Assembly (NCBI GenBank): GCA_036172245.1
Contig: JAYWIR010000047.1
Span: 1,302,001-1,337,680, forward strand
DNA length: 35,680 bases
Source of the DNA: Raillietiella orientalis
Lineage: Eukaryota
Direction: 5' to 3'
Below, piece by piece: positions 3,721 to 35,680 of this stretch. The stretch's first letter is position 1; every line of letters begins with the position of its first letter. A program made the position numbers and the translations under genes. The notes below the pieces were generated by a model. That model searched no databases. It saw nothing but the letters and a program-made list of their open reading frames with translations, and had not been told where the DNA came from.

Positions 3721-3721
3721 A

Positions 3722-14597: not shown

Positions 14598-14599
14598 GT

Positions 14600-14842
14600 A
14601 TCCCCCTCCCTTGGACAACCTGAGTATGGAGGACATTCCTCGAGTGGACTCGGCCCGCGGGTGGCAGATGGAGGCGATGGACGCCATCACGACAACAACG
14701 AGAGAAAGGCGCCGGCGTGAGCGGAAATGCCGCATGCAGCCCGCGTGGCATCGGCGGAAGTGCCACATGCAGCTCACGCGGGTGCGGCGTCCGTAGCAAC
14801 GCGCCCGGCGTGGCAGCGGCGGCACCATCTTACGCCCAACTA
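14600..14842 (+). mobile_element. Relic of Ala-rich ORF1 N-terminus
   Basis: MEDI...MEAMD, AEMPHAARVASAEVPHAAHAGAAS and APGVAAAAPSYAQ resemble MEEHME...GVHAAHTG...AAAAKPPFSYAA of ORF1 at 31631-32010. Low-complexity match. Confidence 0.5.
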
Positions 14843-14844
14843 CG

Positions 14845-15281
14845 CAGCGGCGGCAAAATTAGGCAGTGCGCCCGGTGCAATCCTTTATGCAGTGCCCGAC
14901 TTGACCGCACTCGAAGCATTTCGCTTCCGGTCAAGCGCCTACGCGGTACCCAAACTCCTTGCAGCCCGCGCAGAAGACGGGCTGCAGGCGATAGCGCACT
15001 GTACATCCTGGGAATATTCGTCGATCCTGACGATGCCCGGGATCCGCACATCCACGGAGAGCTTAATCCTCACCATGACCTCTCGCGAGAACAGTTCGTC
15101 CACGTAGTTGCCGAAGGACACCTCCTTCACCTCCTCTGTACCGGCAGAAGTGGTCCCACACGTCTTCCTGCGCGGTGTTGCAGTGTACGCCACGCAGGTA
15201 CACGGTGTTCGGAGGGTGGAGGGGATTGGGAGATCACCGTTCTTTGACAACGTTAGGCGATTTTCTTTGGAGTTGGTTTTG
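14845..15281 (-). mobile_element. Frameshifted ORF1 relic (RRM + CCHC knuckles) related to the intact ORF1
   Basis: NTVYLRGVHCNTAQEDVWDHFCRY / EVKEVSFGNYVDELFSREVMVRIKLSVDVRIPGIVRIDEYSQDV / VRYRLQPVFCAGCKEFGYRVGA*PEAKCFECGQVGHCIKDC vs intact TTVFLSGIGILTEREAIWDFLSQYGEVLEI...DIFSGELIAKIKLKDGAQIPGNVHIDESSQDVSVRYRQQPIFCTGCKNFGHRLGACPRSRCFRCGKLGHQVRNC. Confidence 0.92.
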
Positions 15282-15447
15282 CAGGAGTCTGCGCGAACGC
15301 AGCCTCCCAACCTAAAAATTATGCTTCCGAGTAACCCGCATTTGGGATTATCGCGGAGGTCAGCCCCGCCGGCGTGCAATGGCCAGGCCTCGCTCCGGAG
15401 GAATTGCCATCGTGAACACAATTTAGACCTCGAAGCCAGGTAAGTAT
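15282..15447 (-). ncRNA. U1: U1 spliceosomal snRNA, full length (gene or retrocopy)
   Basis: Minus strand: ATACTTACCTGG 5' end; SL1 AATTGT-GTTCACGATG-GCAATT; SL2 loop ATTGCAC (U1A site); SL3; Sm site ATAATTTTTAG; SL4 GGGAGGCTGCG-TTCG-CGCAGACTCCT. About 166 nt, Drosophila-like CCTCCGGAG. Confidence 0.95.
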
Positions 15448-16619
15448 GAAACTTCTATTGCACCCATTTCCCCTCCCCGTTCCGCATATCCACCTGCCCC
15501 GTATTGCCTCTTTACAAGACTTTCGCTTCCCTTGCTCTTGACCTTCTCCTTGCTTTGCCTCCGTCTCCTACGCTTCCCCATTCCCTTCCTCCTTTGCAGT
15601 ATCTGCTCTTCCGCTTTTCCTCCTGGATTTCATCTTCCGTTTTCGTTTTCCCTTTTGCTTAGCACTTTGCCTCGTCACCCCTCTCTCTCCCTCTGTTTTT
15701 CCATCTGCGCACTACTCGTCGCTGCATCCAGCGCCCCAGCCTCTTGCGATGGGGCACATGTCGCAACGAACGGTGCGCGCGCACGCGCAGAGAGTGCGCC
15801 TGTCTGCGCCGCACGCGCGACCCAGTCGTCGCAGGCAGACGTTGCGCGTCTCCCGAGACGGCCGTATGCATTCCGGCGGCTCACCCCACTTGAATGCTAT
15901 GGCCTTTGACTCTTTGTGCTGTTTCGCAAGCCCGTTTGCTTTACGTGAATGCCGTGTGCGTGTTCCACGAAGGAAAATTCCTTTCAAAGTTTCCTAACAA
16001 CGCTCCAGCATTCCGTCCTCACCATTCCACGCGGATGCAGCTGTTGAGCATAGTGAGATCTGCAAAACCCGTTGTCAGAATCCCCTTTATATTTTTCAAC
16101 GTATTCGTTATTGCTGTAAAGTGTGCTGCTGGGTAGTCAACCTGTCAAGCAAAGGCACTTTAGTGCGAGTGAGCTGTGCAGCCAGTCCAAAATGTCCAAA
16201 GTCTTCAAACGTGGTAACAATTCTTGTCAAATGCACCCATACTATTGCGTCTTTCACGTTTTGGGAGCACACGTCTGATGTGATGGGTCGATCCAATCGT
16301 GCAATGTGACCTTACGGTAAGATCTGTTGATCTGCGTGGACTTTCCGTAAGAAAACTATGGGAAGCCACGCGTTTCTCCGTGTTTCCACTTTGGGCACCT
16401 CAGGGATGCACATTTCCAGGCAAGTGAGTGGCCCTTATGGAAAACAAACGGTTCCACCGCTTCCTCTTCTTGTTGCACAAAATGTGTAGGAAAACGTGCA
16501 ACTTGGAACCATGTGCATTCATTTTGGACCCATGTCATGACTGGTACTGTATCCTTTCTCAACTACAACGAAACCTTCCTGTGCTTCAGGGAACCGGGAA
16601 GTAGGAAGAAGTCACCTGA

Positions 16620-16925
16620 ATTCTAAAGAAGTTTTCCCTTTTGATGTAAACAAAATATTCATTAAACTATTTCTTTTTATAAAAAGTAAATTTTAGACTT
16701 ATTTTTTTTTGAATTAAAAATATTCTAAGGATTAATTCTATTATATTAAAAGTATTATATTTTATAGTAATAACAATAAATAATTATTATATAAAACATT
16801 TGGGGTTAGGTATAAATCAAAGAATATTTTTTTTACTTTAAGAATTTAATTATTATATTACATGCCAGGTATAAAATAAATATTTTATTATAATGAATAA
16901 TTAATGTATTAGAAAATTTTTCCTT
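16620..16925. repeat. Extremely AT-rich low-complexity island between GC-rich blocks
   Basis: Almost only A/T runs, with an abrupt switch to GC-rich sequence at about 16930. Confidence 0.8.
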
Positions 16926-19900
16926 CTGGAACCCTTCGCGGAATCGCGGTGGCGTGCCGCCTGTCCTGCTCGCAAGCGAACCCCGTGCTCGCAGCTTTTG
17001 GTTCCCGCTCGTTGCCCTTCCCTCTCCCCCTCTCATCCCAGTCCGCTGCCCAGCCTGGTCCACCACCACCACCCGTCCTCCGACACTTCGCTCCCGTGAA
17101 CCTGCATTCCCGTAGGCGCCTTTCCCATTTCGTCGCCGTCGCCCGTCGGTTCGGAGCGTCCTCTCCGCCTAATGGCGAACCTCAGCTAAACACGCAAACG
17201 TCGGGGATGCACCATCAGACCGCTGCCTGGATCCAGGATCCCTCGCAACAGCACCCAACCGATCACGACTTGGATACGCTGCACCCGCCACCTTCACCGG
17301 CGGCGGAGCCGCCATCCCGTCCGTCGCTCGAGGTCACTCGTGCCGCCGGCGACGGACGGACGCACCCGTGCATCCACGCCATTTTGCACAGCAACCCCAC
17401 GACCAGCATATTCAGGGCATTGAGCCACTGCGGGAGACCCCGCGCAGCGGCGCCAGCCGTGACACAGACGCCACTCTCCTTCCAGGATCGTCTTCCCTAG
17501 CTCCTCCGCACCTCCTCCAGGAAAGCAGCCCGCCTTGCGAGTGGCGCACCTAACCCCATCCGCTTACCACCCGCGGCCGCAACCCGCCTCGTCCTTCGCC
17601 CTCGCGCGCCTTGTAGCACTCCGGTTGCATTCCCTTTTCGCGTCTTTCCCTTTTGCGTGGTGTTAGTGCGCAGCATTTATCGCTTGCTGCTCCCAATGAC
17701 ATTTCCAAAGTCCCCTTTTCCAGAGTTCGTTTCTCGAATCTTACGGTTTCCTTGTGCATTTCCATTTGCGTTTTCGCATTTCCTTCGCTCTTTGTGTGGA
17801 ATTCGTTTGGTTTTCCTGCCGATGATTTGGTTTCTTTCCTTGCCATCTGGTGCCTCTTCTTCAAATTATCTGTTTGGAGTTCTGCGTGTTCGCTTGTTAT
17901 CGTTCCCTTGCTTCTGTAAAGCTCTCTCCCCTTCGTTCGTTGCAACTATTTGTCGTCATTCTTGTTGCATTTGCGCTTTTTCGCGAGCTTTTCCAGTGCT
18001 CCTTGAACTGTTGACCCGGTTTGTTCCCGTTCCTGCTAGATGCTGGTGCCTGCTGCACTTTATGCGTGTTTTCCTGTAATTGTTTCCCATTGGATTGCGC
18101 GTGCAGAATGTTTCAATTTGCCTTCCTGCCTGCTACGTTCCTGTCTTCCTTGCAATGGTCCTTGATACGGTTGCCCTGTCTTCCTCCTTCCCATCTCGGG
18201 TTGCAGTGCTTTTTTGTTTCCCTCATCAATTGCCTTCGAACGCCATTGAATTGTATGCGCGGTTTTGCTGGTCGCGAAACGTACCGAGGTCGGGATATGC
18301 GTTCCGTAGATGCTCCGTCTTGCGGGAAGAACTCCTCCTTGCTTGTGCGCATCCCGAAATCGTCGACTGGTGTTCGCTCGTTCCGTCTTTGATGCAGGTC
18401 TTCCGTGTGCTACCTGCTCTTCCGGTTTCTTCCGCCGGAGTTCGTCGGTCCGAGCTGAGTTGCGCGCGTCGTCGTGGTGGATGCGCCGTTTCCGTCGTGA
18501 ATGGCGCGAAGGTGATCCGCCTCTGCTCGCTCCGTCGATCCCGCATCTTCGCTTGCGGCCTTCCCGATGATGTTTTTCTTCCGGAGCGCTTTCCTCCTCC
18601 CCTGGTGTTGGCATCGTCCGAGCCCGCTCCGGGTGGTCCCGCAACCCTCCCCTCCTCCCAGATGACCCCTACCTCCTCCGGCATCGCCATCTCTGGGGAT
18701 CGGGGAACTGCTCTACGGCTCGGGGAAGCTTCCGCGCAGCCACCGGACCATCGCTACAGGCAACCAACCACCCACGGCTCGCTCGCCCCCGAGCGGGCGG
18801 GTCGCCGTGGTTCCGGCTCGCTTCCAACGCAGCTTCGGTTGGTTGCCTGGTTCCCCCGTGCCGCACGGGATGCTGTCGGAGGTCCTCGGGTCCGGGGGGA
18901 CTGCTGAGGACCTCCGTCGGGTGCGGCAGGACTCCACTTTCGGGTTTCTCCCTCCTCCCCCATCCCCGAGGCGAAGTGGCATCCGCTCCCGGAGGATCTT
19001 CGCGACGACGATCCGCATCCCACGGGCCCACGAGGGCTCCTCCTACGGGATGGACTGCGGCTGCGAGAAGCGCGCGCGCAACGAGAGAACGCACCCGGGA
19101 TGCGGGAATGGGTGGAGGCGGCGGGGTGCGCGTCCGCGGCCTTAGGGTCCCCCCTCAAAGGGGACGCCCCCGTGGGGAGGAGGGGGGCGGAACCGCGCGG
19201 GCGGGAGGCGAAAAGTTGGGGCGCGATGGGACGAGGGGAGTTCGCCAGTGGACCCGCGTGACTTCGGAAGTCGGACGTCGACCGCGTTGGCGTCGCGGAT
19301 TCGGATCTGCGCCGCCTCCATCGCGTCGGAATGGTCGGCGCCGAGAGCGGGTGGCGCGTCGTGGGCTTCGTGCCCCCTCCTCCCACCCACGGGGAGCCCC
19401 TCGGGGCTTTCAGAGCAGCGACGGGTTCGGATTGCCCCCGTCGGCCTGCAGGCTAACCGCAAGTGCAGCCTCCTGGAATCCCCCCAGGACCCACTCCGGG
19501 TTCTCGGGGTTCCCCCTGCAGTCGTGCAAATCGAGCTGCCAAACCGTGGCGATCGCTGAAACGAGTGCGACGCCAACAGCGGCGTCAGGACCGCCGCCGG
19601 CTTCGACGTCGAGGGCACCGGACGCGTCGCTCATCCCACCACCTCGACCTCGCGTATTCCGAGTTCTCGCGCACATCCTCGGCACCGTCGCTGCCTCGTT
19701 GCCCGAGGAAACGGGAGGACACCTGCGGGAACGCCCTCCCGTCGCGCCTGCGGACGGGAGGGTGAGCCTGTCGGGAGTCCCGGCTCCTTTGGAAACCGAT
19801 CCCTTCTCGCCGATAGAAATGCGCGAGGCGAGGGACGCTTCTGTCCGCGAGGCCGACCCGCAGTGGGAGCCTTCTAGGGCAGCGCGGTGTTCTCCGGACC

Positions 19901-21639
19901 GGGCTTTCCCGCGACTCGGCCTGGCGCGGGTGTGCCCCCCTCTATGGTTGCCCGAGGAAGAGCTCCCGCCCGTGAGATTTTCTCTCTGGTCGGTCTGCCG
20001 AAACCGTTCGGATTTCCATTTCCTTACATAGACGTCGCTGGCGCCTGTGCGAGCTCCTTGCCGTTCGCACACTCCCGCCACGCGTCTCCGGGTGGAAACC
20101 CATTCGAACGCCGTGGGCCTATTCTGTATCCGTGGTTCTCACTGGGCGGGGAGGGTGCAGCTTCCTCCCGCACGAAGGGCATGACCGCTGCGGAGGGCTG
20201 GGCATCCGCAGCTGTTTGAGGACGCTAGCACGGAAGGCTGCAAGGAAGCAGCCGCGGGGGGGGGGGGAAGGGGGGCAAAGTAAAGGTGGGTGTGCGACCG
20301 GTTGCTGGGATCGTCGGAACGCAAGCTTCGCTTCTCGGCCGGCCGCGGTTCCCGCGCATTCGCCGTCCCGACTCGACTGCTTGCGACTCCGGGGCAGGCG
20401 GACGGCGGGAATGCGTGTCGCCCGGCCACGCAAAGTGGAGTCTCCGCCCAGAGGTGGTGGCGTCCTCCTGCAGCACGAGAGGCGTGGCGTGGCGTCGCGT
20501 GCTTCTCCCTGCCATGACAGGCGCGCACGGGGCTGGGACGAGTGCTGTGCTCACGCTCCTCGTGCCGCAAAGCGCTTCGGGCAACGCGCGCTGACCCCCG
20601 TGGGTCATCCACGCCCGCCACGCTGCTTGCGCCCCCGTAGGAGCGGCGAAGGCAGCAGCAGGAATGGAGTCCCGTCGAGAACGGCTGCTGGACCTGACCG
20701 TGGTGCCACAGCTACAGGGCGGGCTATGACTCGGGGAGGGGAGGACGCTACCACCACCGGGGGCCTCGCCTGCCGCGTGGCCCCTGCCCGCCTCCCTTCT
20801 TCCTTTCGCCCGTGGAGACACAGCGCCCGGCCACGCGGTACAACGGCTCCGCCCAACCTCTTTCCCCGCTCCTCAGGCACGCCCTCGAGAGCTGGGTCTG
20901 GCGAGACGGGCGTTGAGTCCACCCAACCCAGTCTGGAGCACTCTTCCCCTTTTCCCGCGCGGTGCCGGAGGAGGAACGGCTGTGCGCGTTTCCGTGGCGA
21001 GGATGGGCCTTCCGGCTTGCACGCGCAGCTGCGGTCCCGGCGCCACCCCGAGTCGAGTGCGAGCTGCGGGGCCTCTCTTGCCGGCAGCGGCCGCCCAGCC
21101 CACGAACGTGCGTGCGCCCACGGATCGGGTGGCTTTACGGCTTCCATCCGCCCCCCAACTCCAACCTCCCCTCGCGCAGCCAACAAAGTGCGCGCGCGGG
21201 CTGTGCCCTCTTCAGATGCGGGGGCACTGCAAGAAGCGGGAGTTGGCACGAGGAGTCACCGAGCGCGGCCGGTCCGACGCGCGCAGGATGCGCGCCCCGT
21301 AGTGGTGATGCAGACGCCGTGACGGCAACGGCGCGGATGGCGGACGATCGATCTCCGTTCTCCCCTTTCCTGATACGACACATCGATGCAGGTTCGAGTT
21401 GGGATGCAGGTTCTAATATTTCTTAGGACAAAATCACAGGTTTCATCATTTACGATCTCCGATGTTTCACTTGAAGTCAGTTTTTCCATCAATGTCTTTT
21501 TCTAGATCGCCTCGATCATCTTTGTGAAGCACAGATAACACATATGCTACCACAGTAATAAATGCGATTGCCGACATAATATGATTACCAAGAAAGCACT
21601 GTAAATCCATTAGCAGCTATAATTGAATGTCAACGTACG

Positions 21640-21719
21640 CCTATGACCTGGCTTCGAGGTGAATTATGAGCACGAATCCGGAAAGTATTTTTGGGAAGCA
21701 GCACGTGTAGTGCTTTGCT
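21640..21719 (+). pseudogene. U1: Internally deleted U1 snRNA relic
   Basis: acctggcttcgaggt (21646-21660) is identical over 15 nt to the U1 copy at 15447. Then aattatgagcacgaa (SL1 stem and loop), a jump at cgga to a Sm-like atttttg (21687-21693), and a terminal hairpin agcagcac-gtgta-gtgctttgct. SL2/SL3 are absent. Confidence 0.7.
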
Positions 21720-21834
21720 AGCAATTGCTGTCTACATATTCTACGTGTTCTACATATTCTACGTCCGGTTTTCGCTTTTGTGTTTCATCGAAAGCGTCAA
21801 CGCTACGCATCGACTACCCGGACGAACGGCTATC

Positions 21835-22230
21835 CACGTCCACGCCCATGGATTTGGACAAAGCAGGCCCCTCTGAAGAAAGAACCATGGTGGGGTCAAG
21901 GGATGATCAGGCGCAATCGCTGTCCTACACGACCGAGCGACGTATACGCAGTGCGCAGCTGCCTCCAGCGATTTTCCGGGAGTGCTCCCCGCACGAAAAC
22001 GAAGCCTCATCAAATCCTCGGAATACGAGGTTTTAGACGACGAAGACGGACCCATCCTCACCATGGTGCCGGAGGTTAAACCGTGAGTTCTCAAAACAGG
22101 TCCCCTTAAACTTGCCGACACCGACGATTTTCACGCGGCAGTCGTATGACAAATCGGAAAGAGATGTCTCTTTCCAGGCATTCGAGAGGCCTCCATTTTC
22201 TTGTGGAGAAGGGATTCTCACTCTACGTCT
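21835..22230 (+). mobile_element. Decayed ORF1 N-terminal relic
   Basis: STPMD (ATG 21848) vs STPME (ATG 31631). PILTMVPEVKP*VLKTGPLKL (22051-22113) aligns without gaps to PMVKLSPASKPITFKTGLVRF (32087-32149; 7/21 identical). FLVEKGFSL (22197-22223) vs ALIEKGINI. Confidence 0.65.
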
Positions 22231-25200
22231 AATCCGCTCAATCCTCCTAGGCGGAAATGACCGCCCTCCTCTGCAAGACCCAACGGACAAAAAATCGAAC
22301 ACGAACCACCCGCTGCAGCCTCTCGAAAATGCGCCTCCTTCCTGCTTTGCGCCCTTCGGCGTGTTCTTCGCACTCGGGATCCGGTGTGCCTGAAAATCCC
22401 GAAGGTTCTCCAAAAGAAATACACAGGCTCATTACCAACATGAATGCACGAGTTCATAAAGGAATCAACGGATCGAACCACATCAATTACGATGAACTGT
22501 AAATACACATGCCTATTACGTACATTCATATGCATTGTGAAAGATTAAAGGTACGGGTAAAAGCTACACATCGCCAAGATGCTAAAAAAATTGACACACG
22601 CGGCTATCAAAAAAGCTAATGTGCACATTCATTTAGGAATGAACACACGATTACATAATGATTAGTTTGCATTGATAGACACGGCGAAGATTAGCCGAAA
22701 AGGGAAGCGTGCACGCTTGCTGTGCTTGCAACGTGCGTAAACGTGCACGGGGATTCATACTGTGGGATTCCGAAAAATGGTGACCACCAAACAGCGTGGG
22801 AGACGTTGAAATGGAAAAGCGAACAAACGACCACGAGAAAAGAGGCGGGAAGCGTGCGTTGCCATCGTTTGCGACACGCGGTGAGCGGAAGTTCCTCGGG
22901 AAGTGACGACACCCGTTGTCGGGACTTTCATTGGTCGCGCATGAACAGCCACGTGTTCGGCCTGCGGCTATTTCCACACTCGTTTGGAGCACAGCTCGTT
23001 CTTTCGTGCAGGAACGCATCCACGTATTCCCGTTTCCTTGTTTTTTCTCATCTCATCTCAACATGTATACCCGAAAATAGCGATAGTAACGCATGTTTCA
23101 TGAATGTGAAATGAATCAATCAAACATGGCATCGTAAGCTGGAGTGTCCACCCATCTTCTTTCAAAGTGGCCTCAAAGCGGTTGCCCGAGCGAGTCCACT
23201 AAGCGTCCCAGATTGCGAGATTTGCATGGAAACGCTAACGAGTTGCTGAAAAGCAGCGACACGTCGTCAACCAAGTGTGTTGGCCGAAGAGCAGTCAACT
23301 CGCTCGTGGGGTGCTCACCTTCCGGGGTTTGCACTCGAACGGTGCAAAGTTTTCTGGAGAACCTTGAACGAGGCACTCGACGTGAAAGATGGGTTTCGAA
23401 GCCGTCTCGCCATGGCGCAGGAAAGCTTTTTCCCCTGCTGCCATCAGCGAACCAAGACCAAGGTTCGCGACGGACCAAGTTCTCTCCGCGCACCGTCCGA
23501 CGAACCGCTGCACCTTCGATCCTCGGTCTTGTACCGCCTGCAATCCGTCCAACTTGTCACTTTCGTGCGGATCGGAATGCTTCGGCCATCCCCCCCCCCC
23601 GCTGCAAGATGGTCATCTCCGCGTGCAACACGGGAAGCGCTGTTTCGTTTCTTCTTTCACCCGTCGCCGCGCAAAACCTGGCGGGCCAGCGGAAAGGCTC
23701 CGAACGGAAAAAGGCGGAAACGGCGAAATGTCTTCGGCGTGTTCGCTGTACACGAGGAGACAGGTTGCTTTCCTGGAACCATAGCAACACGCCATCCTCC
23801 TTTTCTCATATACGGAATTGCGCACACGCCCGAGCGCTCGAGTTCATCAAATCGGATGGTCGATGGAGATGCCTTGGGGATGCGGAAGTTGGAAGACGGC
23901 CATCAACCGCAATCTTGCAGCGCTCGTTCGCATCGATGGAGGTGCGTCGTTCGTACCAGCTCTTCGGGTTTCCTCCTGCTCGTGACCCGAAGTGTGGACT
24001 TGCTAGCACGAATGCGGATAGCGCCACCTGGTGAAACACGCGGTCACTTGTCCCGCGGTGCAACAGCTTCCTGTTTCCCATCTCGGGAAACGACTGATGC
24101 GCACGGGCGGCGATCTCGGAGAAACCGGCGGCCTCCGCGCCCTCTCTGCCGAAGGAAATGTCGTGGCGAGCGGCGTTGGCTCAAGACGGTGCCGACACGC
24201 TCCTGCCGCATCGAACCTCCTCCTCCCGAAAGAGAGATGCTGCGGGGTGGGAACGCTGCTGCTGCTTCGTCGCTCGGCGACCCTTCTGAAAGGGCAGCCA
24301 ATCACGAGCGCTGCGCACTCGTCCGCGCGGATTTCGTTGGGAAGTCGCTTTCAGCAGGTCAGAGATCCTCGCCTGTCAGCTGCCGCTCTGTCGCGCGTCG
24401 GATAAGAGCGCAACCGGAGATTGCACTTTTACCGGAAACGCTTGCATCCTTTGCGGCCTCTTGGACGTGCACGGCTGCGTGGTTATCCCCACGCTCTCGA
24501 TATCCAGGTAAGGGCAGGGCGCACGTTTTCGATTCGCTCGCATCTCCCTCATCGGCCGCCGTCTTTCAGGTTTTCTTCGTTTGCGGCTGCCTGCTTGCCG
24601 GGCTGCGCCGCGGCGCAAGTGAGGCCCAAGAAGCGCCATTCTTACTCCACCGGTCGGTGGAGTAGGAAGATGGGCACAAGGATCCCACGTGACTCTTTTA
24701 GGCCACGGTGCCACGCAGAGGGCAGCGACATGGATTGGACGCGACCGACACGGTGGAGAGCCTTTCGGGCGTTGCCCCTTGGGCCGGGAGGCGGAGACCC
24801 TTTGGGCGTCTCCTCTAGCAGCCGCGACACCGGGAGCGCCGACGTGGCTCGCGTGGAACACGACAGCGTGCCTTTGGGCGTGCCAGCATTGCACTTGCCG
24901 CGGGAACGCACGTATGCAACGGCGTGTTCCACGTGCTCTTGGACCGGCATGCAATGTCGCGAGGGACGGGGTGGAGGGGGGAGAGACACGGCTGCGCCAC
25001 CAGCACGCGAAGCTGACGTTTTCTCCTTACTCCCGGAGACCTTCTTCCGGCTGGCTGACCACGCACCCGAAGTTCGGGAGGACGCTGCCACCCTCTGTCC
25101 CTTGTCTCGAACCTCTGTCGGACAACGCTGCAGATGCCGAACTGCCCTCTTCCGAGGCCGAGCAGGCATTGCAGCAGCAGGGGGCGGTGGGAACCTTCTT

Positions 25201-26699: not shown

Positions 26700-27440
26700 C
26701 CGCGACGAAGCGGAGCGAGCGCTTCCGAGATGCCGCGGCGAACCTCCTCCCATCCGACCGGGGGGCAGCTGTTCCTTTCCCGTGGCTTCGTGCCTTCACC
26801 GAAGAGCGCCCTATTGTCCGTTTGGCTGCGGAGCCCCGGCCTGGTGTTCTGGCCGATCCCTGAAGACGAGCTGTGCTGAGCGGTCCTGCCTGTCCGCGAG
26901 ACCCGTTTCTCCACCAGCTGGACGATGTGATCCCGGCTCCTTTTTGGCTGCTGCTTCCCACGTCCTGCAGCCATTTCCTTCTTCGCGGAATCCCCCTTTT
27001 GAGGATCCCTGATTGAAACTCGTAGCCTGGGGGCTCAACAAGGCCGCCGTCATCACAGGGGGGGACTTTGAGGAAGACTTGTTTTTTTCGTTCCTCCTTT
27101 CGAGAGGGGAGCAGAACGGGAGAGGGAAGGAAAGAGCTTACGAAGCTCCTTAACGCCGTCCTCGCAGCCGGAAGGTGGCTGGGTGCCAACCGTTCAAGTG
27201 ATAGGCGGTACCCCGGGAAGGGACCGCCTCATGAGCCCAGGAAGGCCGCCAGAGGAAGGAGTCCGTTCTTCCTGCTCCCGGGAGGGAACCCCGAAGGAAT
27301 CCTCCTTTTCCCTCTTATCCGCGGAGGGATCCCCCGGAAGGGTGTGATCCGTTTTAATCCTCCCAAGGGAACACGCAAGCGAAACTGTCCTCGTTACACC
27401 TCCACCGAAGAGACCCTCGAAGGGAGCAGCGCGCTTCTTA
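26700..27440 (-). mobile_element. Possible highly decayed LINE endonuclease relic
   Basis: Scattered fragments in APE order: FEGL, LGRIKTD, PGSRKNG, TWEAAAKKEP/DHIVQLVE (vs VWRTASHKPIDHVLHSAE), DRSAQLVF, GWEEVRRGI. Weak. Confidence 0.3.
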
Positions 27441-27701
27441 TCGACTCTCCGGAGAGGGCAACCCTCGAAAACAGGATCCCCCGGCTGAATCGCCATTTTC
27501 GCAGCGGGTGGGGAACCCCGGAGGGCTGCCTGATTCCCGGAAGGCCCCCGGGAGAGTCCACTACACCGATTCCTGAGGGCAGTCAACAGGGGCATCCGGA
27601 GGTTAGCGGCTTCCACCGGTACCGTCGCCTCCGAAGTTTCAGACCAATCAGCGTTATCCTGCAGGGGAGGACTCGGAACGCACGACGCATCGATTCTCGT
27701 T

Positions 27702-27764
27702 TCCCGGGCGGGATTCGAACCCGCGACGCTAAGAGGAGTGAGCCGCACGGCCGCCCACGCGGGA
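27702..27764 (-). pseudogene. tRNA-like remnant / SINE head with B box
   Basis: Minus strand has a T arm GCGGG-TTCGAAT-CCCGC and an acceptor-like TCCCGCG/CCCGGGA pairing (6/7). The D and anticodon arms are too short or unrecognisable, so it is not a functional tRNA. Confidence 0.4.
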
Positions 27765-28828
27765 GATGGTGCGTCGCGGGAATCGCGTAGGGGATCCGGG
27801 ACCATTCTCGCAGGTTCCTGGGAAGGATCTCGAAGGTCCGGCGCTGCCAAGGTCCGGCTGGTGAGCGGAGCATCTGGTCACCGAACTCTGCAGCGCTTCC
27901 TGCAGGCTGCAGCTGCACAGCCGAAGCCTCCGTGCCGTCATGGGGAGGCTTGCAAGCCACGCGCATCTACTTCGGGACGTGTCGGTCCTTCATTCGAGCC
28001 CGCCAGGTCGCCACCCCCGATGAAGCTCCAGGACTGCGAAGATCCGGTGCGAATCAACTGGCCGCTGCGGAAATGCAGGCGACCCACCGGCCGACAAAGC
28101 GAAAGGGTGCGACTGCGTCGCTACGGAGCAGAATTACGAGCTCACTCCGCCTACGCCGCGGCTCCACGAGAAGCGCAACTTGAATGTCGCAACCACATTA
28201 ACGATGAAAGAAGAAAATGATGTTAATCCACCACAATGGCATAATGTACCAACGTCAAGATGGAAACAGCATGCGGAATCGTAATTGAGACCAATCACAA
28301 CATCCAGAATCGAAAAGTTTCTTTCGAACCACGAAAAAGGCGTAACATTTGGCGGCCGACGATTCGAAAACCGTTCGAATTCCCGTTCGGCTGGATCAAA
28401 TAATTTCAGCCTCTGGCGGGGTTCCACCGAATGCAACAGGAGATCTGGGGAGGAAACCTCTGAATTGGCAACCCTGCTCTACCGATTGTCGAACCTCCCC
28501 CGTCTCCAAGGGTAACAGAACAAACTCGAGGAAACAATAAAAGAAAAGAAAATGGAAAGCATTCGATCGATGTCGTAAGGCGAGCGACACACCCTATCGC
28601 GGATGCACTACACCACCCGAAAAACGGTCGCTTTCCTTCCCGGAAGAACAGGCTGGATCGCCGTTGCCCAGAACTGGCCGCCCTGCAACCCGCAATGCTC
28701 TCTCCCACACGTCGTCTTGGAGAAGAAGCGCCAGCAAGAGGGTGAGAACAGGATCGAGGTGCTGCTTGAGACCGCGACCTCCTGAAACGACGGTAGGTGG
28801 ATCATCAACACGGAAACAACAACAAAAT

Positions 28829-28849
28829 ACACACACACACACACACACA
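28829..28849 (+). repeat. (AC)10 microsatellite
   Basis: Perfect AC run. Confidence 0.95.
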
Positions 28850-30781
28850 AGACAATTTCTTCTTTCGGGTAGGATCACGAAGAAGAAGCTTGCGTTGGAA
28901 CCGACGATCGGGATGCAACCCCGTGAGGCGCACAAGGAACGACGAAACGAGCGATGTCATTCCCCGGAGCTATGAACGGTCGCAGGGGGCGGCGAAAAGC
29001 CTGCGAGGCACGGGGCGCACTTTCCTGCTGCGTACAATGAACAGGAGGGTTCGGGGGACGCAAGCGACTCGGAAGGCAAACATTTCGGCAGGAGCAGGAA
29101 GGCTGCCCGAGCCTGCGACGTGCAGGCGCGAGTGAGGACGCACAAAACCAAAAAGAGAAGGAGCAGCGCTCAAACGAATCGGAGTTTGGTAAAGGCGCGC
29201 TTACGCACGCGAGCGCGCCGACGCTGCTGCTCAGTGCACAGCCCGCGAGTACGCTGAAGTGATCAGCAGAAGCGCGAGATGGCACTCAGCAAGCAGACGG
29301 GCGCCACGGGAACACGCCGCCGCCGAACATTCAACGGGTCCGCAATCAAGGAGCAATAGACAAAAACAGCCGCATCCCAGCTGAAGAGCAGTTGGATGCG
29401 TACGCGTTCGCCGAATGCGATGGTCCATACAGCAGACGAGACCACTCCTGGTCGACAGACACAGCATCGTCGTGAAAAAGCAGAAAGGCGGAAGAGCGAA
29501 AATCCACAGAACGTCACAAAACGAACCGCAGAAGGAAGGAACGAACCACACAACCGAACACACCACCACTACACGAATCGCGAATCGCACACCCTACGAA
29601 TCTTGAGGCTCGGGAAGACAAAAACTCGAAGGAATACCATGAAGGCAACTGATTGGAATGCCAGAACCCCAAAAAAAAGGCTCCTCGCAGGATGCGGAAG
29701 GTCTCCCCACCTTGATCCGGGCAACAAATCGACGGACACGAACCAATGCAGGGACAACCTTTTTTACGAGATGCACCGGAAAACTCTACGAAGCCATCCC
29801 GCGCCCGAAAAGTGCCAGATGAACAGCACGGACAAGAAAGAGATCGCACAAGCAGGACAGAGCGGCACTGGTCAGCAAGTGGTTGCAAAAGAAAAAGTCT
29901 TTGGGATGCAGAAATTTTCCGGAACAGGTAACAGATTCTTGGCGATCACTCTTCGACACCGGGGGCAAGTTGCAAGCCCGAGTAGGAGACAACCGAACGG
30001 AAGCAGGAAATGCTAACGAAAGCGGTGAAAAAACACCTTTCGATGGAAAGAACACACGGGATCCGCCGAACCGCAGCATTCGCCACTGAAAAATGAAGGA
30101 ATCATAACGAAGCGAGAAATTGCAGAACAAACTCGAACAGCAAGAATTCAGCCTCTTACGCGGGTCGCACCATTCATTCTTCAGCAGAGCACCCGCGGGC
30201 ACGTAATTGAGACTTGCGAAAACGAGCGCACACGCCAAACACACAGCGAACGGATGCATTCTCAACATAGATGGAAAAAAGAAGATGAAGAAGAAAAGAT
30301 GCGTCCCCAAAAAGTGCGAACATGTCAAAAAGAACCATACAGCAGAAATACAATGCGAAATTGCAGAGCGAGAACTTTGACAGATACGAAAAGAAGTGGC
30401 ACCTCACACGTTGCACAGCAACATGAACAACCGATTCGTACAGCCGATGGACATGTGTTCGATGGGGCAAACTGCAAAAGGAAATAGAAAAGGTGTAATC
30501 GGAAGAAACGCGCAGGATCAGCAGCAACCGCCGCTCCAAAACCTGCCAAAGACTCCTCACATTAAGATAAAACAAAAAGTACTTCAACACATTGGCAGAA
30601 AAGACTTAAATGAAAAAATTTTCCAGTACTACCCACATATAACACACATAAGTACGAGCACATAACGTCAAAGGATGGAGAAATATCATTCTCTACACCG
30701 TGTTTACAATCTTTCTTCCCACAGTAAATACAGAAGAGGTAACGTCGCTTCCTTTCACCCAACCTGCCCTTATGCGTAGTT

Positions 30782-31260
30782 AAAAAAAAAAAAAAAAAAA
30801 CAAGTACTCCTCTTACAGCAATTCGTTACCTTGGGCGAAAAATCACGAAGAGCATCCAAAGAAAATTCAAAAAACGGCCAAATTCAAAACACGAAACTAG
30901 CAGCATCTAGTGGAAGAAAATCAAACCACGAAATAAAAAAAATTTCAAAATAAACGAAGAAAAAAAACACATCACACGAAAAATAGACGAAACACACAAA
31001 AAAGAACAAAGAAAAAAAAAAAATCACTACACACAACAAAAATGGTAAAATAATAGAAAAAAAAATAGTTCAAGAATCAAAACAAAGAGGGAAGCATGAA
31101 GCAAATTCACAAAACCGCGAAAAATAACAAACTAACACAAAGTCAAAAACAAACTCAAATAACAAGAAAGACAAAAAAAACCAAAACAAAAAGCAAAATA
31201 AAAAAACCACTAAACAATACTCTCAAAAACACCAATTCAACAAAACCTACCACAAATAAA
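30782..31260 (+). repeat. A19 tract followed by A/C-rich low-complexity sequence
   Basis: A run at 30782-30800, then strongly A-skewed sequence up to about 65 nt before U4. Confidence 0.85.
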
Positions 31261-31324
31261 ACGCATACGTAACTACGCACAAATACTGCCCGCGGAATCC
31301 GGACCATCAAAAACTTTAATCGCC

Positions 31325-31463
31325 AGCCTTGCGCACGGGCAGTACGTAGGCGAGGAAGGCGACTGAGCCGCGATTATTGCTAGTTGAAAACTTTACCCAA
31401 TACCCCGCCAAGGCAGTGCGTAAAACCACTGCCGCGGCAATTTTTGTGTGCCCTCACAGGGCA
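31325..31463 (+). ncRNA. U4: U4 spliceosomal snRNA, full length (gene or captured copy)
   Basis: AGCCTTGCGCACGGGC (U6 stem II strand); kink-turn stem-loop GGC-GAG-GA-AG-GCGA-CT-GA-GCC; conserved GCGATTATTGCTAGTTGAAAACTTTACCCAATACCCCGCC; 3' stem-loop ggcagtg/cactgcc; Sm site AATTTTTG (31439-31446); terminal hairpin tgccct-cac-agggca. 139 nt. Confidence 0.93.
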
Positions 31464-31630
31464 AGTGCCTGCCGAAGAGTAGTGTGGAAGTGACTGTGCC
31501 ACCGAGGGAAATACCCGACAGCAGCAGCAGCGCCGAAGGACCCGAGGTGGAAGTCCTCCAAACAAGAAGTGCGGCAGCAACGGCAGCCGCAAGGAGGCAC
31601 ATCCAAGGAGTGGAGCAGCCGTCGACCCCC

Positions 31631-33400
31631 ATGGAAGAACACATGGAGGTAATATGCGGCAGTGGCGAGGAGGCAGCGGCGACGCCGAGGGTCGCGCCCG
31701 CGGCAGGCTTTGCTGCGCCGGCGGCGGCGATGCCGAGGGTCGTGCCCGCGGCGACGGCGATGGAGGTCGTGCCCGCGGCGGCGACGTCGAGGATCGCGCC
31801 CGCGGCGGGGAAGGTCGTGCCGGCGGCGGCGATGCCGAAGGTCCCGCCTACGGCGACATCGACGACGGCGACGACGAGGGTTGCGCCCGCGGTGGCGGCG
31901 GCGTCCCAGGCGGGAGCCGCGGGCGTCCACGCGGCGCACACAGGGCAAGGTGCGACGCCATCTTGCTCGGCGGCGGCGGCGAAACCGCCGTTTTCGTATG
32001 CGGCGGTGACGGCGGGGCAGGCCTCTGCCCTGCCAAACAGGAAATTCGGGAAGCCTGCGAGTGAGAACATCACTCGAACCAAAGAACCCATGGTGAAGTT
32101 GAGTCCAGCGTCCAAACCCATCACCTTTAAAACCGGGCTGGTCCGGTTTAATAACATAAGGCAGGTGTATTGTGCGCTGTATAGGACAAATGTCGACTTT
32201 GATCGATTGCAGGCGATAATCCCGAACTCAGCGGGATTCATCCTGTATACTGACTGCGAAGAGCTGCGGGAGGCCCTTATCGAAAAGGGCATCAACATTC
32301 AGGGGAAGATGGTGCAAGGCATTGGCGAAATGCCTTACACGACAGTCTTCCTAAGTGGAATTGGCATCCTCACCGAGAGAGAAGCGATATGGGACTTCCT
32401 GTCCCAATACGGAGAAGTTCTGGAAATAAAGACCCAGAACATCTCCGGAGACATCTTCTCGGGCGAGTTGATCGCCAAAATTAAATTGAAGGACGGGGCG
32501 CAGATCCCAGGCAATGTCCATATCGACGAATCGTCGCAAGACGTTTCCGTCAGATATAGGCAGCAGCCGATCTTTTGCACCGGCTGCAAAAATTTCGGGC
32601 ACCGCTTGGGCGCCTGCCCAAGGTCGCGTTGCTTCCGCTGTGGGAAGTTGGGCCATCAGGTCCGAAACTGCAGCATGCCCGAGCTTTGCTCCTTTTGCAA
32701 GCAACCAGGGCATGCGAAATGGAGTTGTCCGGAGTATGCAAACTACCGGACGATTAGAGGAGAGTCCCCGGTGAGGGAAAGGGTGCTAGCTGAGGTAATC
32801 AAACCTCAGCTAGCAAAGCAGAGGAAAACAAGAGAGGCCGCTCCGGTTTCGGCAGACGGCTTCGTGGAGGTGGGGAAGAAGGGGAAAAGTAAGATGCTCG
32901 CAAGGGAGCAACAGATTCCTCAAACCCCGGTAGTTGAAGCGGCGGTAGGCGAGAGTATGGAGGTGGCGGAGGAAACGGAGAAGGAGGAGAAGACGCCAGA
33001 ACCAGTCCCGGAGACGCAGGAGGCCCTGCAACTTTCCGAGGAGGTGGTCAAACTGGCAGAGGAGGTTCGCCAGGGCCAACCGGAGGCGGAACAGGCAAAA
33101 ATCCTGAACCGCATCTGCGAGGTCCAAGACGACGTAAACCGCATGGTTGTAGAACCAGAGCGGGAAAAGCTGGAGGACCAGCTGGGCGACCTGAAGGCGG
33201 CATTCTGTGCGACGGTCTCGCTGGAGACCCTTCCGCGCAAGGTGGTCGCCAAGGCGGAACGCTCTGTGGACGAACAGGAGTCCACTGATCACACCGGCAC
33301 CGAGAGTGATGCCGGCAGTGAAAAACCCACTTCTTCAGCAGGGAAACTGAATAAGTCTCCCCAGCAGAAGAAGCTAAGGAAGGCAAGAAAGGTGAAGTAG
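31631..33400 (+). CDS. ORF1 nucleic-acid-binding protein (Ala/Pro repeats, RRM-like domain, three CCHC knuckles, acidic/basic tail)
   Basis: CTGCKNFGHRLGAC, CFRCGKLGHQVRNC, CSFCKQPGHAKWSC. First ATG is at 31631. The frame is open from at least 31448, but that GTG lies inside U4. Confidence 0.93.
   Translation: MEEHMEVICGSGEEAAATPRVAPAAGFAAPAAAMPRVVPAATAMEVVPAAATSRIAPAAGKVVPAAAMPKVPPTATSTTATTRVAPAVAAASQAGAAGVHAAHTGQGATPSCSAAAAKPPFSYAAVTAGQASALPNRKFGKPASENITRTKEPMVKLSPASKPITFKTGLVRFNNIRQVYCALYRTNVDFDRLQAIIPNSAGFILYTDCEELREALIEKGINIQGKMVQGIGEMPYTTVFLSGIGILTEREAIWDFLSQYGEVLEIKTQNISGDIFSGELIAKIKLKDGAQIPGNVHIDESSQDVSVRYRQQPIFCTGCKNFGHRLGACPRSRCFRCGKLGHQVRNCSMPELCSFCKQPGHAKWSCPEYANYRTIRGESPVRERVLAEVIKPQLAKQRKTREAAPVSADGFVEVGKKGKSKMLAREQQIPQTPVVEAAVGESMEVAEETEKEEKTPEPVPETQEALQLSEEVVKLAEEVRQGQPEAEQAKILNRICEVQDDVNRMVVEPEREKLEDQLGDLKAAFCATVSLETLPRKVVAKAERSVDEQESTDHTGTESDAGSEKPTSSAGKLNKSPQQKKLRKARKVK
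31675..31895 (+). repeat. Degenerate ~27-bp coding minisatellite (AAxPRVxPA) in ORF1
   Basis: About seven units of gcga(c/t)gccgagggtcg(c/t)gcccgcggc and variants. Confidence 0.85.
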
Positions 33401-33416
33401 GACTCCCCCCCCTTTC

Positions 33417-35680
33417 ATGGCCTCGTCGCTGTCCAGTGCCAGGAGGATTAACATCGCCTCCTGGAATGTGAATGGACTGACGGACCAGGGAAAGAGAAAG
33501 ATCATCATGCGGACCATCGCAAAATTTAAGGTGGTGTGCCTACAAGAAATCCACCGTCTCGGGCAACAGAACGCCCTGGAGATGGAACGCCGATTCGACG
33601 GACAACTGTTCGCCAGCGAGGGACAGAAGAAGACCATGGGGGTGGCGATCCTCATCAAGAACGAGCTCGCCCACACCATTTTGGAAACCTTCTGTCAGGT
33701 ACCTGGCAGAGTAATCGGCGTGCGACTGTCCTGGTCCAGTAACGTTCACCTCTTCCTGGTGAACGTCTACGGACCGCACAAGATCAAGCATCGGTGCGCG
33801 GAGAAGCTGCAAGAAGAACTCCGCAAACGAGTGGCACCGAAGGACATAGTTATCGTCGCTGGGGATTTCAACATCCTGGATGAAATTAAATATTCTCAGG
33901 ATGCAAGAGGAAGAGCGGCGTATCGGCGGCTGTCCGACGAGTTCGGACTTGTGTGGCGAACAGCTAGCCACAAGCCGATCGATCACGTCCTCCACAGTGC
34001 GGAGATAGACAACCGCATCCAGGGTTTTCGTGACATCCCACACCTGTTGTCCGATCACCCAGTGGTACGGTTTACACTCCGCACTGAGAATCCTCGTAAA
34101 GAAAAGGCCACCAGGGCGGCGCTCATCTGCATGCCCGCCTGGTTCGAAACGCTTCCCGGTCACCAGGAAGTCATCGAGGCGATCCTGCAAGATACTACCA
34201 TCCGCAGGGTCGCCGACTGGGACCGATTGAAGCACAGAATCCATCTGTTCTGCAATATGCAGTACTTCTGTAAGCGCATGAGGCAGGAAGCGTACCGGGA
34301 GCTGAACATCCAAGATCGCTCCCTCTCGAAGTACTTCGATCAGTACGAGAGTCGGTACGTCTTCCAGAACACGAAAAGGGAGGTCGGCGTGCTGGAAAAG
34401 AGGAATCTGGCCACAGATATCTTCTGCATCCAGTGCGACGGCCAAGAGCGGCACACGTCGGAGGATATCGCGGAATCCTTTCACAGGCATTACGCGAGAC
34501 ACTTCCGACGACAAGATCTCTGCCGCTCGAGTCAGCAAGCCTTCCTGGGTTACCTCGAGAAGAGGACGGACGACCTCCAAAGAAGTAGACTGGAGGAGGA
34601 GTTCTCCGAAGAGGAAGTGAAGACTGCGTTTGGGCAGCTTCGCAAGGATGTGGCAGCAGGCCCTGATAGTGTACCCATCTCGCACTATCAGCGGTACCTG
34701 CACGCCTACCTGCGTTTGTTCCACCAGTTGACACTCTGCATCCGAGAAGAAGGACGACTTCCGGGATCCTTCTACGAGAGTAGGATGAGATTGCTGCCAA
34801 AAGGAGGCGATCTCACGCAGATCGCTCAATGGAGGCCGATCTCGATCCTAAACTCAGATGCCAAGTGGTTGGCGAAGATCTGGTCCAACCGCTTAGGCAG
34901 GGTCATGTCGAGGCTGATCTCTCCGGTCCAGACGTGTGCAGTCCCAGGACGACACATGTCTGACAATGGTAAGTGTGCCCAGGCCACCGTCGGTCTCAGC
35001 CGATACGTCGGCGAGAACCTGGTGCTGGTGTTCACCGACATGGAGAAGGCCTTCGACTCCATCGACCACGGGATGCTGCTGAAGGTTCTGGAGAAGCTTG
35101 GGCTTCCGAAACACTTCAGCAACTTCGTGAGGGCGGTACTCCAAAACCAGTACTGCCGTATCAAAATCAACGGCCAAGAGACGGCAGCAATTAGGATGGA
35201 ACGAGGAGTCCGGCAGGGCGACTCGCTAAGTCCAATGCTGTTCGTCATATACATGGAGGCGCTGTCTTCTTACATCGAGAGAAGCGGTCGTCTATCAGGG
35301 ATCTCCATTGATGGTCAGCACCTGACCCATCTGGCATACGCAGATGATCTCCTCTTCTTCATCAAGGGAGAGAGGAATCAACGAGCGTTCCTGGATGTGG
35401 TCGACCTCATGGAACGGGGACTGGGCTTGAAAATCAATGCCCAAAAGAGCCAGCTTTTGCCCGTCGGAATCCTGAACCTCTCCACTCTAACGGGGAGTGG
35501 ATTCCGTACGGTGGACACGGCCAAGTACCTGGGAGTCTACATCGGCGACGACTCTGCGTCGAAACTGCTGTGGACGGAAATCCTGGGGAAAACGGCCAAC
35601 GAAGCAGCGAATTACACTCGAGTGGACTTTAACATGAAGCGAAGAGCCAACCTGTGGAACGGAGTACTTCTACCAAAGAT
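33417..35680 (+). CDS. ORF2: APE endonuclease + reverse transcriptase (3'-incomplete)
   Basis: Hand translation shows no stop over 754 codons: IASWNVNGL, VCLQEIH, NVYGP, AGDFN (33858-33872), IDH, LSDH, WRPISILNSDAK, TDMEKAFDSI, RGVRQGDSLSPMLF, LAYADD (YADD 35337-35348), KYLGV. Confidence 0.97.
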   Translation, partial: MASSLSSARRINIASWNVNGLTDQGKRKIIMRTIAKFKVVCLQEIHRLGQQNALEMERRFDGQLFASEGQKKTMGVAILIKNELAHTILETFCQVPGRVIGVRLSWSSNVHLFLVNVYGPHKIKHRCAEKLQEELRKRVAPKDIVIVAGDFNILDEIKYSQDARGRAAYRRLSDEFGLVWRTASHKPIDHVLHSAEIDNRIQGFRDIPHLLSDHPVVRFTLRTENPRKEKATRAALICMPAWFETLPGHQEVIEAILQDTTIRRVADWDRLKHRIHLFCNMQYFCKRMRQEAYRELNIQDRSLSKYFDQYESRYVFQNTKREVGVLEKRNLATDIFCIQCDGQERHTSEDIAESFHRHYARHFRRQDLCRSSQQAFLGYLEKRTDDLQRSRLEEEFSEEEVKTAFGQLRKDVAAGPDSVPISHYQRYLHAYLRLFHQLTLCIREEGRLPGSFYESRMRLLPKGGDLTQIAQWRPISILNSDAKWLAKIWSNRLGRVMSRLISPVQTCAVPGRHMSDNGKCAQATVGLSRYVGENLVLVFTDMEKAFDSIDHGMLLKVLEKLGLPKHFSNFVRAVLQNQYCRIKINGQETAAIRMERGVRQGDSLSPMLFVIYMEALSSYIERSGRLSGISIDGQHLTHLAYADDLLFFIKGERNQRAFLDVVDLMERGLGLKINAQKSQLLPVGILNLSTLTGSGFRTVDTAKYLGVYIGDDSASKLLWTEILGKTANEAANYTRVDFNMKRRANLWNGVLLPK

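Follow-up and report, generated by a model that had tools for sequence, protein, structure and literature searches.

Two complete spliceosomal snRNAs of the Sm class, U4 and U1, are fused to two divergent LINE relatives within a single window of 35,680 nt (the whole stretch of DNA that was analysed). Each snRNA lies 5′ of its own LINE part and in sense with it, and the two LINE parts start at different points (Table 1). With a probability of about 0.5, both units are independent RNA-level snRNA/LINE chimeric retrocopies produced by a template switch that ended reverse transcription. They are most likely a fresh example of the known snRNA/LINE chimera phenomenon and not a new system.

Table 1. 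Features of the U4- and U1-headed units and their surroundings (positions counted from the first letter of the window).
Feature	Position	Strand	Details
Older LINE relic, opposite in orientation to the U1 copy	10793..14375	+	ORF1 relic 10793-11376, RT 12642-13037, zf-RVT region, ORF2 stop 14375
Decayed, 5′-truncated ORF1 relic	14874..15215	-	Matches intact ORF1 over residues 304-417
Spacer from U1 3′ end to detectable ORF1 homology	15216..15281	-	66 nt; ORF1 frame continues, one stop
Complete U1 snRNA head	15282..15447	-	RF00003, 122.2 bits, model 1-166/166
Flank 5′ of U1	15448..15720	-	Purine-rich and T-poor in U1 orientation
Short U1-like fragment	21645..21676	+	15 nt identical to U1 positions 7-21; about 32 nt when extended
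Flank directly 5′ of U4	30783..31324	+	A-rich, T-poor; 21-nt poly(A) at start
Complete U4 snRNA head	31325..31467	+	RF00015 match 31325-31461, then terminal stem-loop and 4 nt to 31467
Leader from U4 to first ORF1 ATG	31468..31630	+	163 nt, T-poor; presumed LINE 5′ UTR
ORF1	31631..33400	+	Ala/Pro-rich N-terminal repeats, conserved core, three CCHC zinc knuckles (32576-32728), acidic tail
ORF2 (APE endonuclease and reverse transcriptase)	33396..35680	+	761 aa seen, open to window end

A U4 head at 31325-31463, directly 5′ of an ORF1-bearing copy, had been proposed in a sequence-only reading of this DNA, and the Rfam search bears it out: the match to RF00015 reaches 88.1 bits against a gathering score of 46 and spans the model entirely (1-138/138). 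An Sm-type site and a 3′ hairpin are visible in the sequence and fold, and the terminal stem-loop with the following 4 nt carries the snRNA a little further than proposed, to the very position at which a second form of the junction, described below, departs from the window sequence. U4 adjoins the LINE directly, and the LINE is apparently intact as far as the window reaches. Since the reading frame of ORF1 (stop-to-stop 31424-33400) is open backward into U4, ORF1 may be slightly 5′-truncated.

ORF1 has an internal repeat at 31673-31895, and its three knuckles, found by Pfam zf-CCHC and a knuckle scan, follow the pattern CX2CX4HX4C. A full HMMER scan assigned its core 1413 library relatives at E<=1e-3, which come without names or context, and a word-index search with ORF1 returned 0 matches, probably being swamped by low-complexity words. 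In ORF2, Pfam recognizes Exo_endo_phos (PF03372, E 1.6e-15) and RVT_1 (PF00078, E 6e-33); among solved structures, human LINE-1 ORF2p comes closest (E 2.5e-50), with R2 at E 3e-26. Database relatives share only 22-31% identity with ORF2, and an atlas search gave nothing beyond generic APE-RT clusters. Judged by sequence, an N-terminal APE-type endonuclease followed by the reverse transcriptase, together with L1-type closest relatives, place the U4-headed element in the L1 superfamily. No named Tx1 reference sequence was among the returned database relatives; the CCHC-type ORF1 is compatible with Tx1, yet it is not known to be specific to this clade. The lineage is termed L1/Tx1-like here.

The U1 head, likewise proposed beforehand at 15447-15282, is complete on the minus strand and exceeds the RF00003 gathering score of 69.5; an ORF1 relative begins 66 nt onward. 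By the look of this U1, the host genome may be of invertebrate type and not that of a mammal. In tblastn, the ORF1 relic (15215-14874) is 32.5% identical to the intact ORF1 over 123 columns (E 2.9e-17), and it was recovered by phmmer (E 3e-8 and 2e-6) and by an ORF1-core profile (E 2e-4 and 3e-3). It retains one intact knuckle (14918-14877), has two in-frame stops, and is broken by frame shifts into three frame pieces. From the frame as we read it, the spacer probably continues the decayed ORF1. An opposite-strand LINE relic interrupts the U1 copy at about 14600-14870, and the older LINE relic, near which no snRNA was detected, meets the copy tail to tail. From 1930 on, the window is a dense heap of decayed LINE pieces on both strands.

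The sequence-only reading had counted three related ORF1-bearing copies, each lying 3′ of a co-oriented snRNA; the U4 and U1 units stand, and the third, said to be headed by a U1 relic at 21640-21719, does not. No Rfam match was obtained there even at E<=10, and at this threshold the whole window holds no further snRNA relics. A single exact 15-mer (21646-21660) was found by blastn-short with E 0.004; its extension is a 32-column local alignment with 26 identical columns and one 2-nt gap, and in a lenient Smith-Waterman comparison 20 of 40 shuffles of U1 scored as high. The fold of the fragment is no better than that of shuffles (z -0.01), and a search for a flanking direct repeat found none. 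On its 3′ side, in 21720-28000, ORF1/ORF2 homology was limited to noise of E>1 in tblastn (E<=10), phmmer, and profile searches (ORF2 profile from 14 sequences, ORF1-core profile from 150 representatives), and Pfam found no domain in this interval among 70 stop-to-stop ORFs. With neither an Rfam match nor LINE sequence after it, the fragment was rejected as a third snRNA/LINE chimera. The third unit excluded, related LINEs that carry ORF1 do have an Sm-class snRNA at the 5′ end in the U4 and U1 cases. To treat these as independent events, as had been proposed, is fair: the LINE parts share 32% amino-acid identity and give no blastn match, so they are too divergent to derive from one duplicated unit.

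The junctions are alike on the snRNA side and different on the LINE side. U1 stops at the last column of the model and U4 stops 4 nt past its terminal hairpin; on the LINE side, the U1 copy enters mid-ORF1 at about residue 285-304, and the join of the U4 copy lies 163 nt ahead of the start codon of ORF1. A join made at the RNA level would account for its position at or near the mature snRNA 3′ end, because a DNA target would have to match the RNA end in two unrelated genes. Of the three models offered by the earlier reading (insertion at the 3′ ends of snRNA genes, template jumping onto snRNAs, and heads inherited as part of the element), it is template jumping that this anatomy fits best, the other two keeping lower probabilities. 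We infer a template switch followed by insertion, with neither snRNA being a working gene. The reverse transcriptase of an L1/Tx1-like LINE, engaged in target-primed reverse transcription, would arrive at the 5′ end of its template, which in the U4 case may have been LINE RNA of full or almost full length and in the U1 case an RNA broken or left in mid-ORF1. The enzyme would then jump to an abundant snRNA of the Sm class, landing on its 3′ end, and copy it up to the capped 5′ end, and the fused cDNA would integrate in A- or purine-rich DNA, the type of site nicked by an L1-type endonuclease. The flank preceding U4 is presumed to be either the insertion target or the tail of an older retroposon, and the final 16 nt before U4 (31309-31324) open with a run of A, as expected of an L1-type duplication.

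Other observations count against the template switch or weaken it. Searches of the window, which closes at 35680 before the U4 copy has reached its 3′ end and in which the U1 copy is interrupted as described, found no target-site duplication enclosing snRNA and LINE; k-mer searches around the U1 chimera and the opposite-strand LINE yielded only chance-level 9- to 11-mers. With about four LINE pieces recognisable in 35 kb, two chimeras are far more than the rate for human L1 would give, and for such a density rare accidents are no better an explanation than a habit of the lineage, targeting, or a head that is inherited.

The precedents, by analogy, lend support to template switching, and in view of them the earlier label of a candidate new system appears overstated. 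L1 chimeras with U6 and, less commonly, with U1, U2, U4, and U5 have been published (Buzdin 2002; Garcia-Perez 2007, as described in papers citing them), and a preprint of 2025 describes a catalogue of 253 chimeras. A full-length snRNA co-oriented with the LINE is given as the hallmark of the U6/L1 chimera, and 5′ truncation is described as frequent among the chimeras that LINE-1 forms with repetitive RNAs such as U6. The units reported here share with the mammalian chimeras a full snRNA on the 5′ side and in sense, a LINE of the L1 superfamily, a variable LINE start, and a join at the snRNA 3′ end. Unlike the mammalian cases, they have an ORF1 of the CCHC type, in one of them the LINE appears complete and its ORFs are open, where those described are often 5′-truncated, and two cases occur in 35 kb, with target-site duplication and poly(A) tail not seen within the window. 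For Tx1, U1 or U2 sequence is reported to have been added repeatedly to the 5′ side of SINEU, whose mobilisation by Tx1-Mar LINEs was inferred in the same work (Kojima 2015, PMC4494074). The recurrent 5′ addition of Sm-class snRNAs, with differing heads and joins and occasional microhomology at the junction, is common to SINEU and to our units; however, SINEU heads are described as partial, inherited within families, and placed on short non-autonomous elements, whereas U1 and U4 are complete here and sit on an autonomous LINE. In end-to-end template jumping (Bibillo and Eickbush 2004, as cited elsewhere) and L1 5′ transduction, the latter known from chimeras of near-full length, non-LINE sequence is similarly added 5′ of a full-length element in one insertion, but the donors described are flanking transcripts or mRNA exons and not Sm-class snRNAs. 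Our literature search returned no report of a U1- or U4-headed autonomous LINE outside mammals.

Instead of being joined to snRNAs at the RNA level, the LINEs might have inserted directly 3′ of true U1 and U4 genes, to be transcribed from their promoters, the read-through RNA perhaps being retrotransposed with the snRNA attached, as in 5′ transduction. We consider this unlikely, even though both snRNAs are structurally sound, with full Rfam scores and an intact Sm site and loops, and U1 is far better preserved than the neighbouring ORF1 relic, as expected under selection on U1. Moreover, U1, the U1-like fragment, and U4 all fall into a span of 16 kb and could mark a true snRNA gene cluster. 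LINEs targeting snRNA genes do exist: Keno (Tx1 clade) and Utopia, both in U2, are named in PMC4640811 together with Dada-U1 and Dada-U6 as the only snRNA-gene-targeting transposons as of 2015. Keno and Utopia resemble our units in being LINEs physically tied to spliceosomal snRNA genes, but they are described as occupying a single conserved site within U2, with U2 sequence to either side, whereas here the snRNA is whole and upstream only. Furthermore, that type has one target gene per lineage; here, two different genes, U4 and U1, are involved, on ORF1 relatives that are 32% identical. With both snRNAs entire on the 5′ side, the units were rejected as insertions of the Keno/Utopia type. Nor is there an obvious DNA-level reason why insertions in two unrelated genes should both fall at the 3′ end of the mature RNA.

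The DNA upstream of the snRNAs likewise counts for an RNA-level join and against genuine genes. When the 150 nt upstream of U1, U4, and the U1-like fragment were compared, the best local scores were met by 141, 240, and 27 of 300 shuffles, and the sole shared 7-mer lies at unrelated distances. Because this similarity is at shuffle level, a common proximal promoter element or shared gene flank upstream of U1 and U4 may be absent. Both flanks are T-poor and A- or purine-rich, as is the LINE sense strand, and so resemble retroposon or low-complexity sequence rather than host DNA; the DNA at 1-1930, by contrast, is unskewed and AT-rich.

Inheritance of the head is quite unlikely: after one founding fusion, an active LINE subfamily would have kept U4 as its 5′ end and passed it on with each copy, in an autonomous counterpart of SINEU. 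The U4 copy, with ORF1 and ORF2 open, is a potential source element. A search of sequencing runs found one, X1 (share 0.46), that contains the sequence, with no RNA run among those listed. One Logan contig of X1 tracks 31438-31791 with 1 difference and a word depth of 7.55, against 7.8 for the next ORF1 contig, and all six X1 records shown among the longest pieces fall inside the LINE; however, contig depth is not copy number, X1 may be the same source as the window DNA, and the contig has <31 letters on the U4 side, so the junction is not bridged by the rule of the tool. Another X1 contig, which counts in favour of template switching, links the last 30 nt of U4 (to 31467) with 31952, the join sitting on an 11-nt identity (31455-31465 vs 31939-31949); thus, a second U4-to-LINE join, at microhomology, exists in this run. 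It could be a deletion derivative of a U4-headed family, or a simple deletion between the 11-nt repeats in the U4-headed copy, not an independent jump. In the contigs of X1-X3, many bins of a 20-kb stretch including U1 are without cover, and no conclusion is drawn from them. At 12 related loci (8 metagenome, 4 IMG/VR), of which only about two (L004, L010) have enough 5′ sequence, snRNA searches gave 0 matches, a slight point against the chimera reading. Inheritance cannot explain both units, because the relic behind U1 is part of another, divergent LINE whose head and join both differ, and the head would bring no promoter, since the promoters of Pol II snRNA genes are described as external (PMC4494074).

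It is doubtful, too, that an L1/Tx1-like lineage habitually bears Sm-class snRNA heads, U1 and U4 being captured often and at least U4 being inherited by a coding-competent multi-copy subfamily. If so, the lineage would be the autonomous-LINE counterpart of SINEU, and the head, rather than serving as a promoter, might give the LINE RNA an Sm site and a 5′ end of snRNA type, useful perhaps for stability, nuclear re-import, or escape from surveillance. The underlying trait might be a reverse transcriptase that is unusually prone to jumping, or else a true preference for snRNAs. If the units are ordinary template-switch chimeras, they extend to a divergent LINE with a CCHC ORF1, in a different type of genome, a phenomenon known chiefly from mammals and, on the Tx1 side, from SINEU of crocodilians. 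They would also show that a complete snRNA can become attached to a LINE with both reading frames still open, and the head on such a copy can in principle be passed on, which offers a route to new retrotransposon 5′ ends and new SINE-like families.

Finally, a coincidental stacking of ordinary LINE insertions and snRNA pseudogenes in this repeat graveyard, for which the crowding of decayed LINE pieces on both strands might speak, is highly improbable, since both full-length snRNAs are co-oriented with and lie 0-66 nt from an ORF1-homologous start, a pair expected by rough estimate at about 1e-5. By our own estimate, one snRNA would fall, co-oriented, <=70 nt upstream of any of the 3 ORF1-homologous segments of the window with a chance of about 0.003, and the adjacency of both confirmed units is very unlikely to be due to chance.

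At the Rfam gathering thresholds, exactly two RNAs are found in the 35,680-base window, a complete U1 and a complete U4 snRNA, and both keep an Sm-type site and the terminal hairpins, as seen in the Rfam alignments and in the U4 fold. A permissive Rfam rerun (E ≤ 10) over the whole window yielded no further snRNA. The sequence-only reading had interpreted this region as carrying three LINE copies, each headed by an snRNA; this view is supported in part, namely for the U4-headed copy and the U1-headed relic, where Rfam confirms the head and ORF1 homology the LINE part, and it fails for the third unit, a U1-like scrap.

Features of the snRNA-headed units and of the neighbouring LINE sequences
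Feature	Position	Strand	Basis or detail
Decayed ORF2 relic	2069-4372	-	profile positions 413-875
Weak matches (three) to one RT stretch	10392-10523, 11687-11824, 12774-12995	+	ORF2 residues about 650-718
Older LINE relic	10793-14600	+	ORF1 relic 10793-11376, RT 12642-13037, zf-RVT region, ORF2 stop 14375
Complete U1 snRNA	15447-15282	-	Rfam 122.2 bits, model 1-166/166
Complete U4 snRNA	31325-31461	+	Rfam 88.1 bits, model 1-138/138
ORF1 frame, open stop-to-stop	31424-33400	+	first ATG 31631
T-poor leader, 163 nt	31468 to first ATG at 31631	+	sequence
ORF2	33396 to window end, still open after 761 residues	+	Pfam domains

In the U4-headed copy, the terminal hairpin of U4 closes at 31463, judging from the sequence and its fold, and four more bases reach 31467. 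ORF1 of this LINE bears Ala/Pro-rich internal repeats and three CX2CX4HX4C knuckles, and its conserved core has 1413 relatives at E ≤ 1e-3 in a representative library. The ORF2 product carries an endonuclease domain of the APE type (E 1.6e-15) and a reverse transcriptase domain (E 6e-33). Among solved structures, human LINE-1 ORF2p matches it best (E 2.5e-50, with R2 at E 3e-26), and the nearest database proteins share only 22-31% identity with it. Because both ORFs are open, the APE and RT domains are present and LINE-1 ORF2p is the best match, the element is classed as an L1-superfamily LINE that is young and coding-competent, its ORF1 being of the CCHC type. The database matches returned for this LINE included no named Tx1 reference.

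The LINE part of the U1-headed relic is decayed. ORF1 residues 304-417 align to 15215-14874, starting 66 bases past the last U1 base (32.5% identity, E 2.9e-17), and the match, also recovered by phmmer and by an ORF1-core profile, is split into three frame pieces with two in-frame stops. By our reading of the frame, the 66-nt spacer continues in the frame of ORF1, and therefore the LINE part probably begins directly at the end of U1 or close to it, in the middle of ORF1. At about 14600-14870, the relic meets an older plus-strand LINE tail to tail; the latter has a T-rich 3′ UTR with AATAAA at 14573, and no snRNA was detected near it by Rfam. Since there is no nucleotide similarity between the LINE parts of the two headed units, they are taken to represent different families of one ORF1 type and not mutual duplicates.

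The two units are best explained as template-switch chimeras of an snRNA and a LINE (probability about 0.5), the join being made, in this proposal, at the RNA level. Such a join is suggested because both snRNAs are complete from the first base onwards and lie in sense with the LINE, because U1 and U4 end at or within 4 nt of the mature end, and because the snRNA differs between the copies, as does the LINE side of the join, which lies in the leader of the U4 copy and in mid-ORF1 in the U1 copy. No target-site duplication was found, the 3′ ends of both copies being missing. Targeted insertion at the 3′ ends of snRNA genes, or read-through, is less likely, as it is difficult to conceive of a DNA-level target that matches the mature RNA 3′ end in two unrelated genes. 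Of roughly four recognisable LINE pieces, two are headed, which is a high share, the rate of human L1 chimeras being much lower, and for this reason a habit of the lineage, targeting or inheritance of the head stays plausible. An inherited U4 head, possibly after a founding switch, is rated slightly lower than targeting; the chance that none of the explanations considered applies is small, and mere coincidence is very improbable.

In the published U6/L1 chimeras, a full-length U6 stands at the 5′ end, in the same orientation as the LINE portion, which is usually 5′-truncated. SINEU elements, inferred to be mobilised by Tx1-Mar LINEs, show a recurrent 5′ addition of U1 or U2 sequence, with short homology at some joins, and these additions are ascribed to template switching (Kojima 2015, PMC4494074). 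The transposons listed as targeting snRNA genes are only Keno and Utopia (inside U2), Dada-U1 and Dada-U6 (Kojima and Jurka 2015, PMC4640811). On the published features compared, the U4 and U1 units work like the snRNA/LINE-1 chimeras and the 5′ additions of SINEU, and unlike the gene-targeting transposons of the Keno/Utopia type, two of whose defining features they lack. New features of the present case are its host lineage, a LINE with ORF1 of the CCHC type, and the attachment of a complete U4 to a LINE whose two frames are still open; for the last, no report was found in the literature, a preprint's supplementary chimera catalogue aside.

A public sequencing run, coded X1, contains 46% of the sampled words from 30700-35680. 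One of its Logan contigs, 354 nt long, tracks 31438-31791 with one difference, only 24-30 of its letters lying in U4, which is below the rule for bridging the junction. In a second contig, the 3′-terminal 30 letters of U4, up to 31467, are joined to 31952 in ORF1, and exactly at this join the U4 end (31455-31465) and ORF1 (31939-31949) share an 11-nt identity. It could be a second fusion guided by microhomology or a deletion in a U4-headed copy; whichever its origin, U4-to-LINE joins occur beyond the one sequence of the assembly. Several diverged versions of the LINE body occur in X1 (e.g., contigs with 73 differences in 566 letters, 27 in 875), contig depth not being equal to copy number, so that no copy count was taken. 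No snRNA was seen in 12 related loci from metagenomes and IMG/VR, of which only about two include the 5′ region.

In the third unit, the exact match to U1 is limited to 15 nt, positions 7-21 of U1 at 21646-21660 (E 0.004 by blastn-short), and extends to a 32-column alignment with 26 identities and one 2-nt gap; an equal lenient alignment score was reached with 20 of 40 shuffled U1 sequences. Its fold is unremarkable, and no flanking repeat was found around it. The scrap is probably a real piece of U1, and it heads no detectable LINE: the proposed third copy is abandoned, since Rfam is silent on it at E ≤ 10 and no ORF1 or ORF2 likeness lies 3′ of it by tblastn, phmmer, the ORF2 profile or the ORF1-core profile. 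No Pfam domain occurs downstream either. A short tandem repeat with a 9-nt period (21731-21764) lies just 3′ of the fragment.

Within 150 nt upstream of U1, U4 and the scrap, nothing common was found beyond the shuffle level, which is weak evidence against tandem gene copies and against a proximal promoter element common to them. The flank upstream of both U1 and U4 is T-poor: 540 nt 5′ of U4 are A-rich and start with a 21-nt poly(A) (30783-30803), and 270 nt 5′ of U1 are purine-rich. In composition, both resemble the LINE sense strand and the sites preferred by L1-type endonucleases, and they differ from the AT-rich DNA at 1-1930, which shows no skew. The same poly(A) ends a T-poor 2.6-kb plus-strand stretch (28200-30803) with a (CA)n run at about 28829-28850, which looks like an older retroposed sequence co-oriented with the U4-headed LINE; searches of it gave no homology to proteins.

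Unskewed AT-rich DNA (GC about 0.29-0.33) occupies 1-1930 and 16620-16920, in sharp contrast to the rest of the window, a GC-rich repeat pile (0.5-0.7); the 300-bp block at 16620-16920 resembles a strip of host DNA left between insertions nested in one another. The minus-strand ORF2 relic appears 3′-truncated because its end coincides with the boundary with AT-rich DNA, and the three weak RT matches point to a recurrence of partial RT pieces on the plus strand. In the region 18500-21350 (GC 0.61-0.70), each strand has long open frames, those of the plus strand measuring 486 and 448 aa; neither a Pfam match nor homology to LINEs was found there. Finally, a near-perfect inverted repeat at 1653-1707, within the AT-rich part, gives sub-threshold Rfam matches on both strands to plastid 3′UTR hairpins and miRNA precursors (best score 38.8 bits, gathering 51.5) and is probably a mere palindrome.
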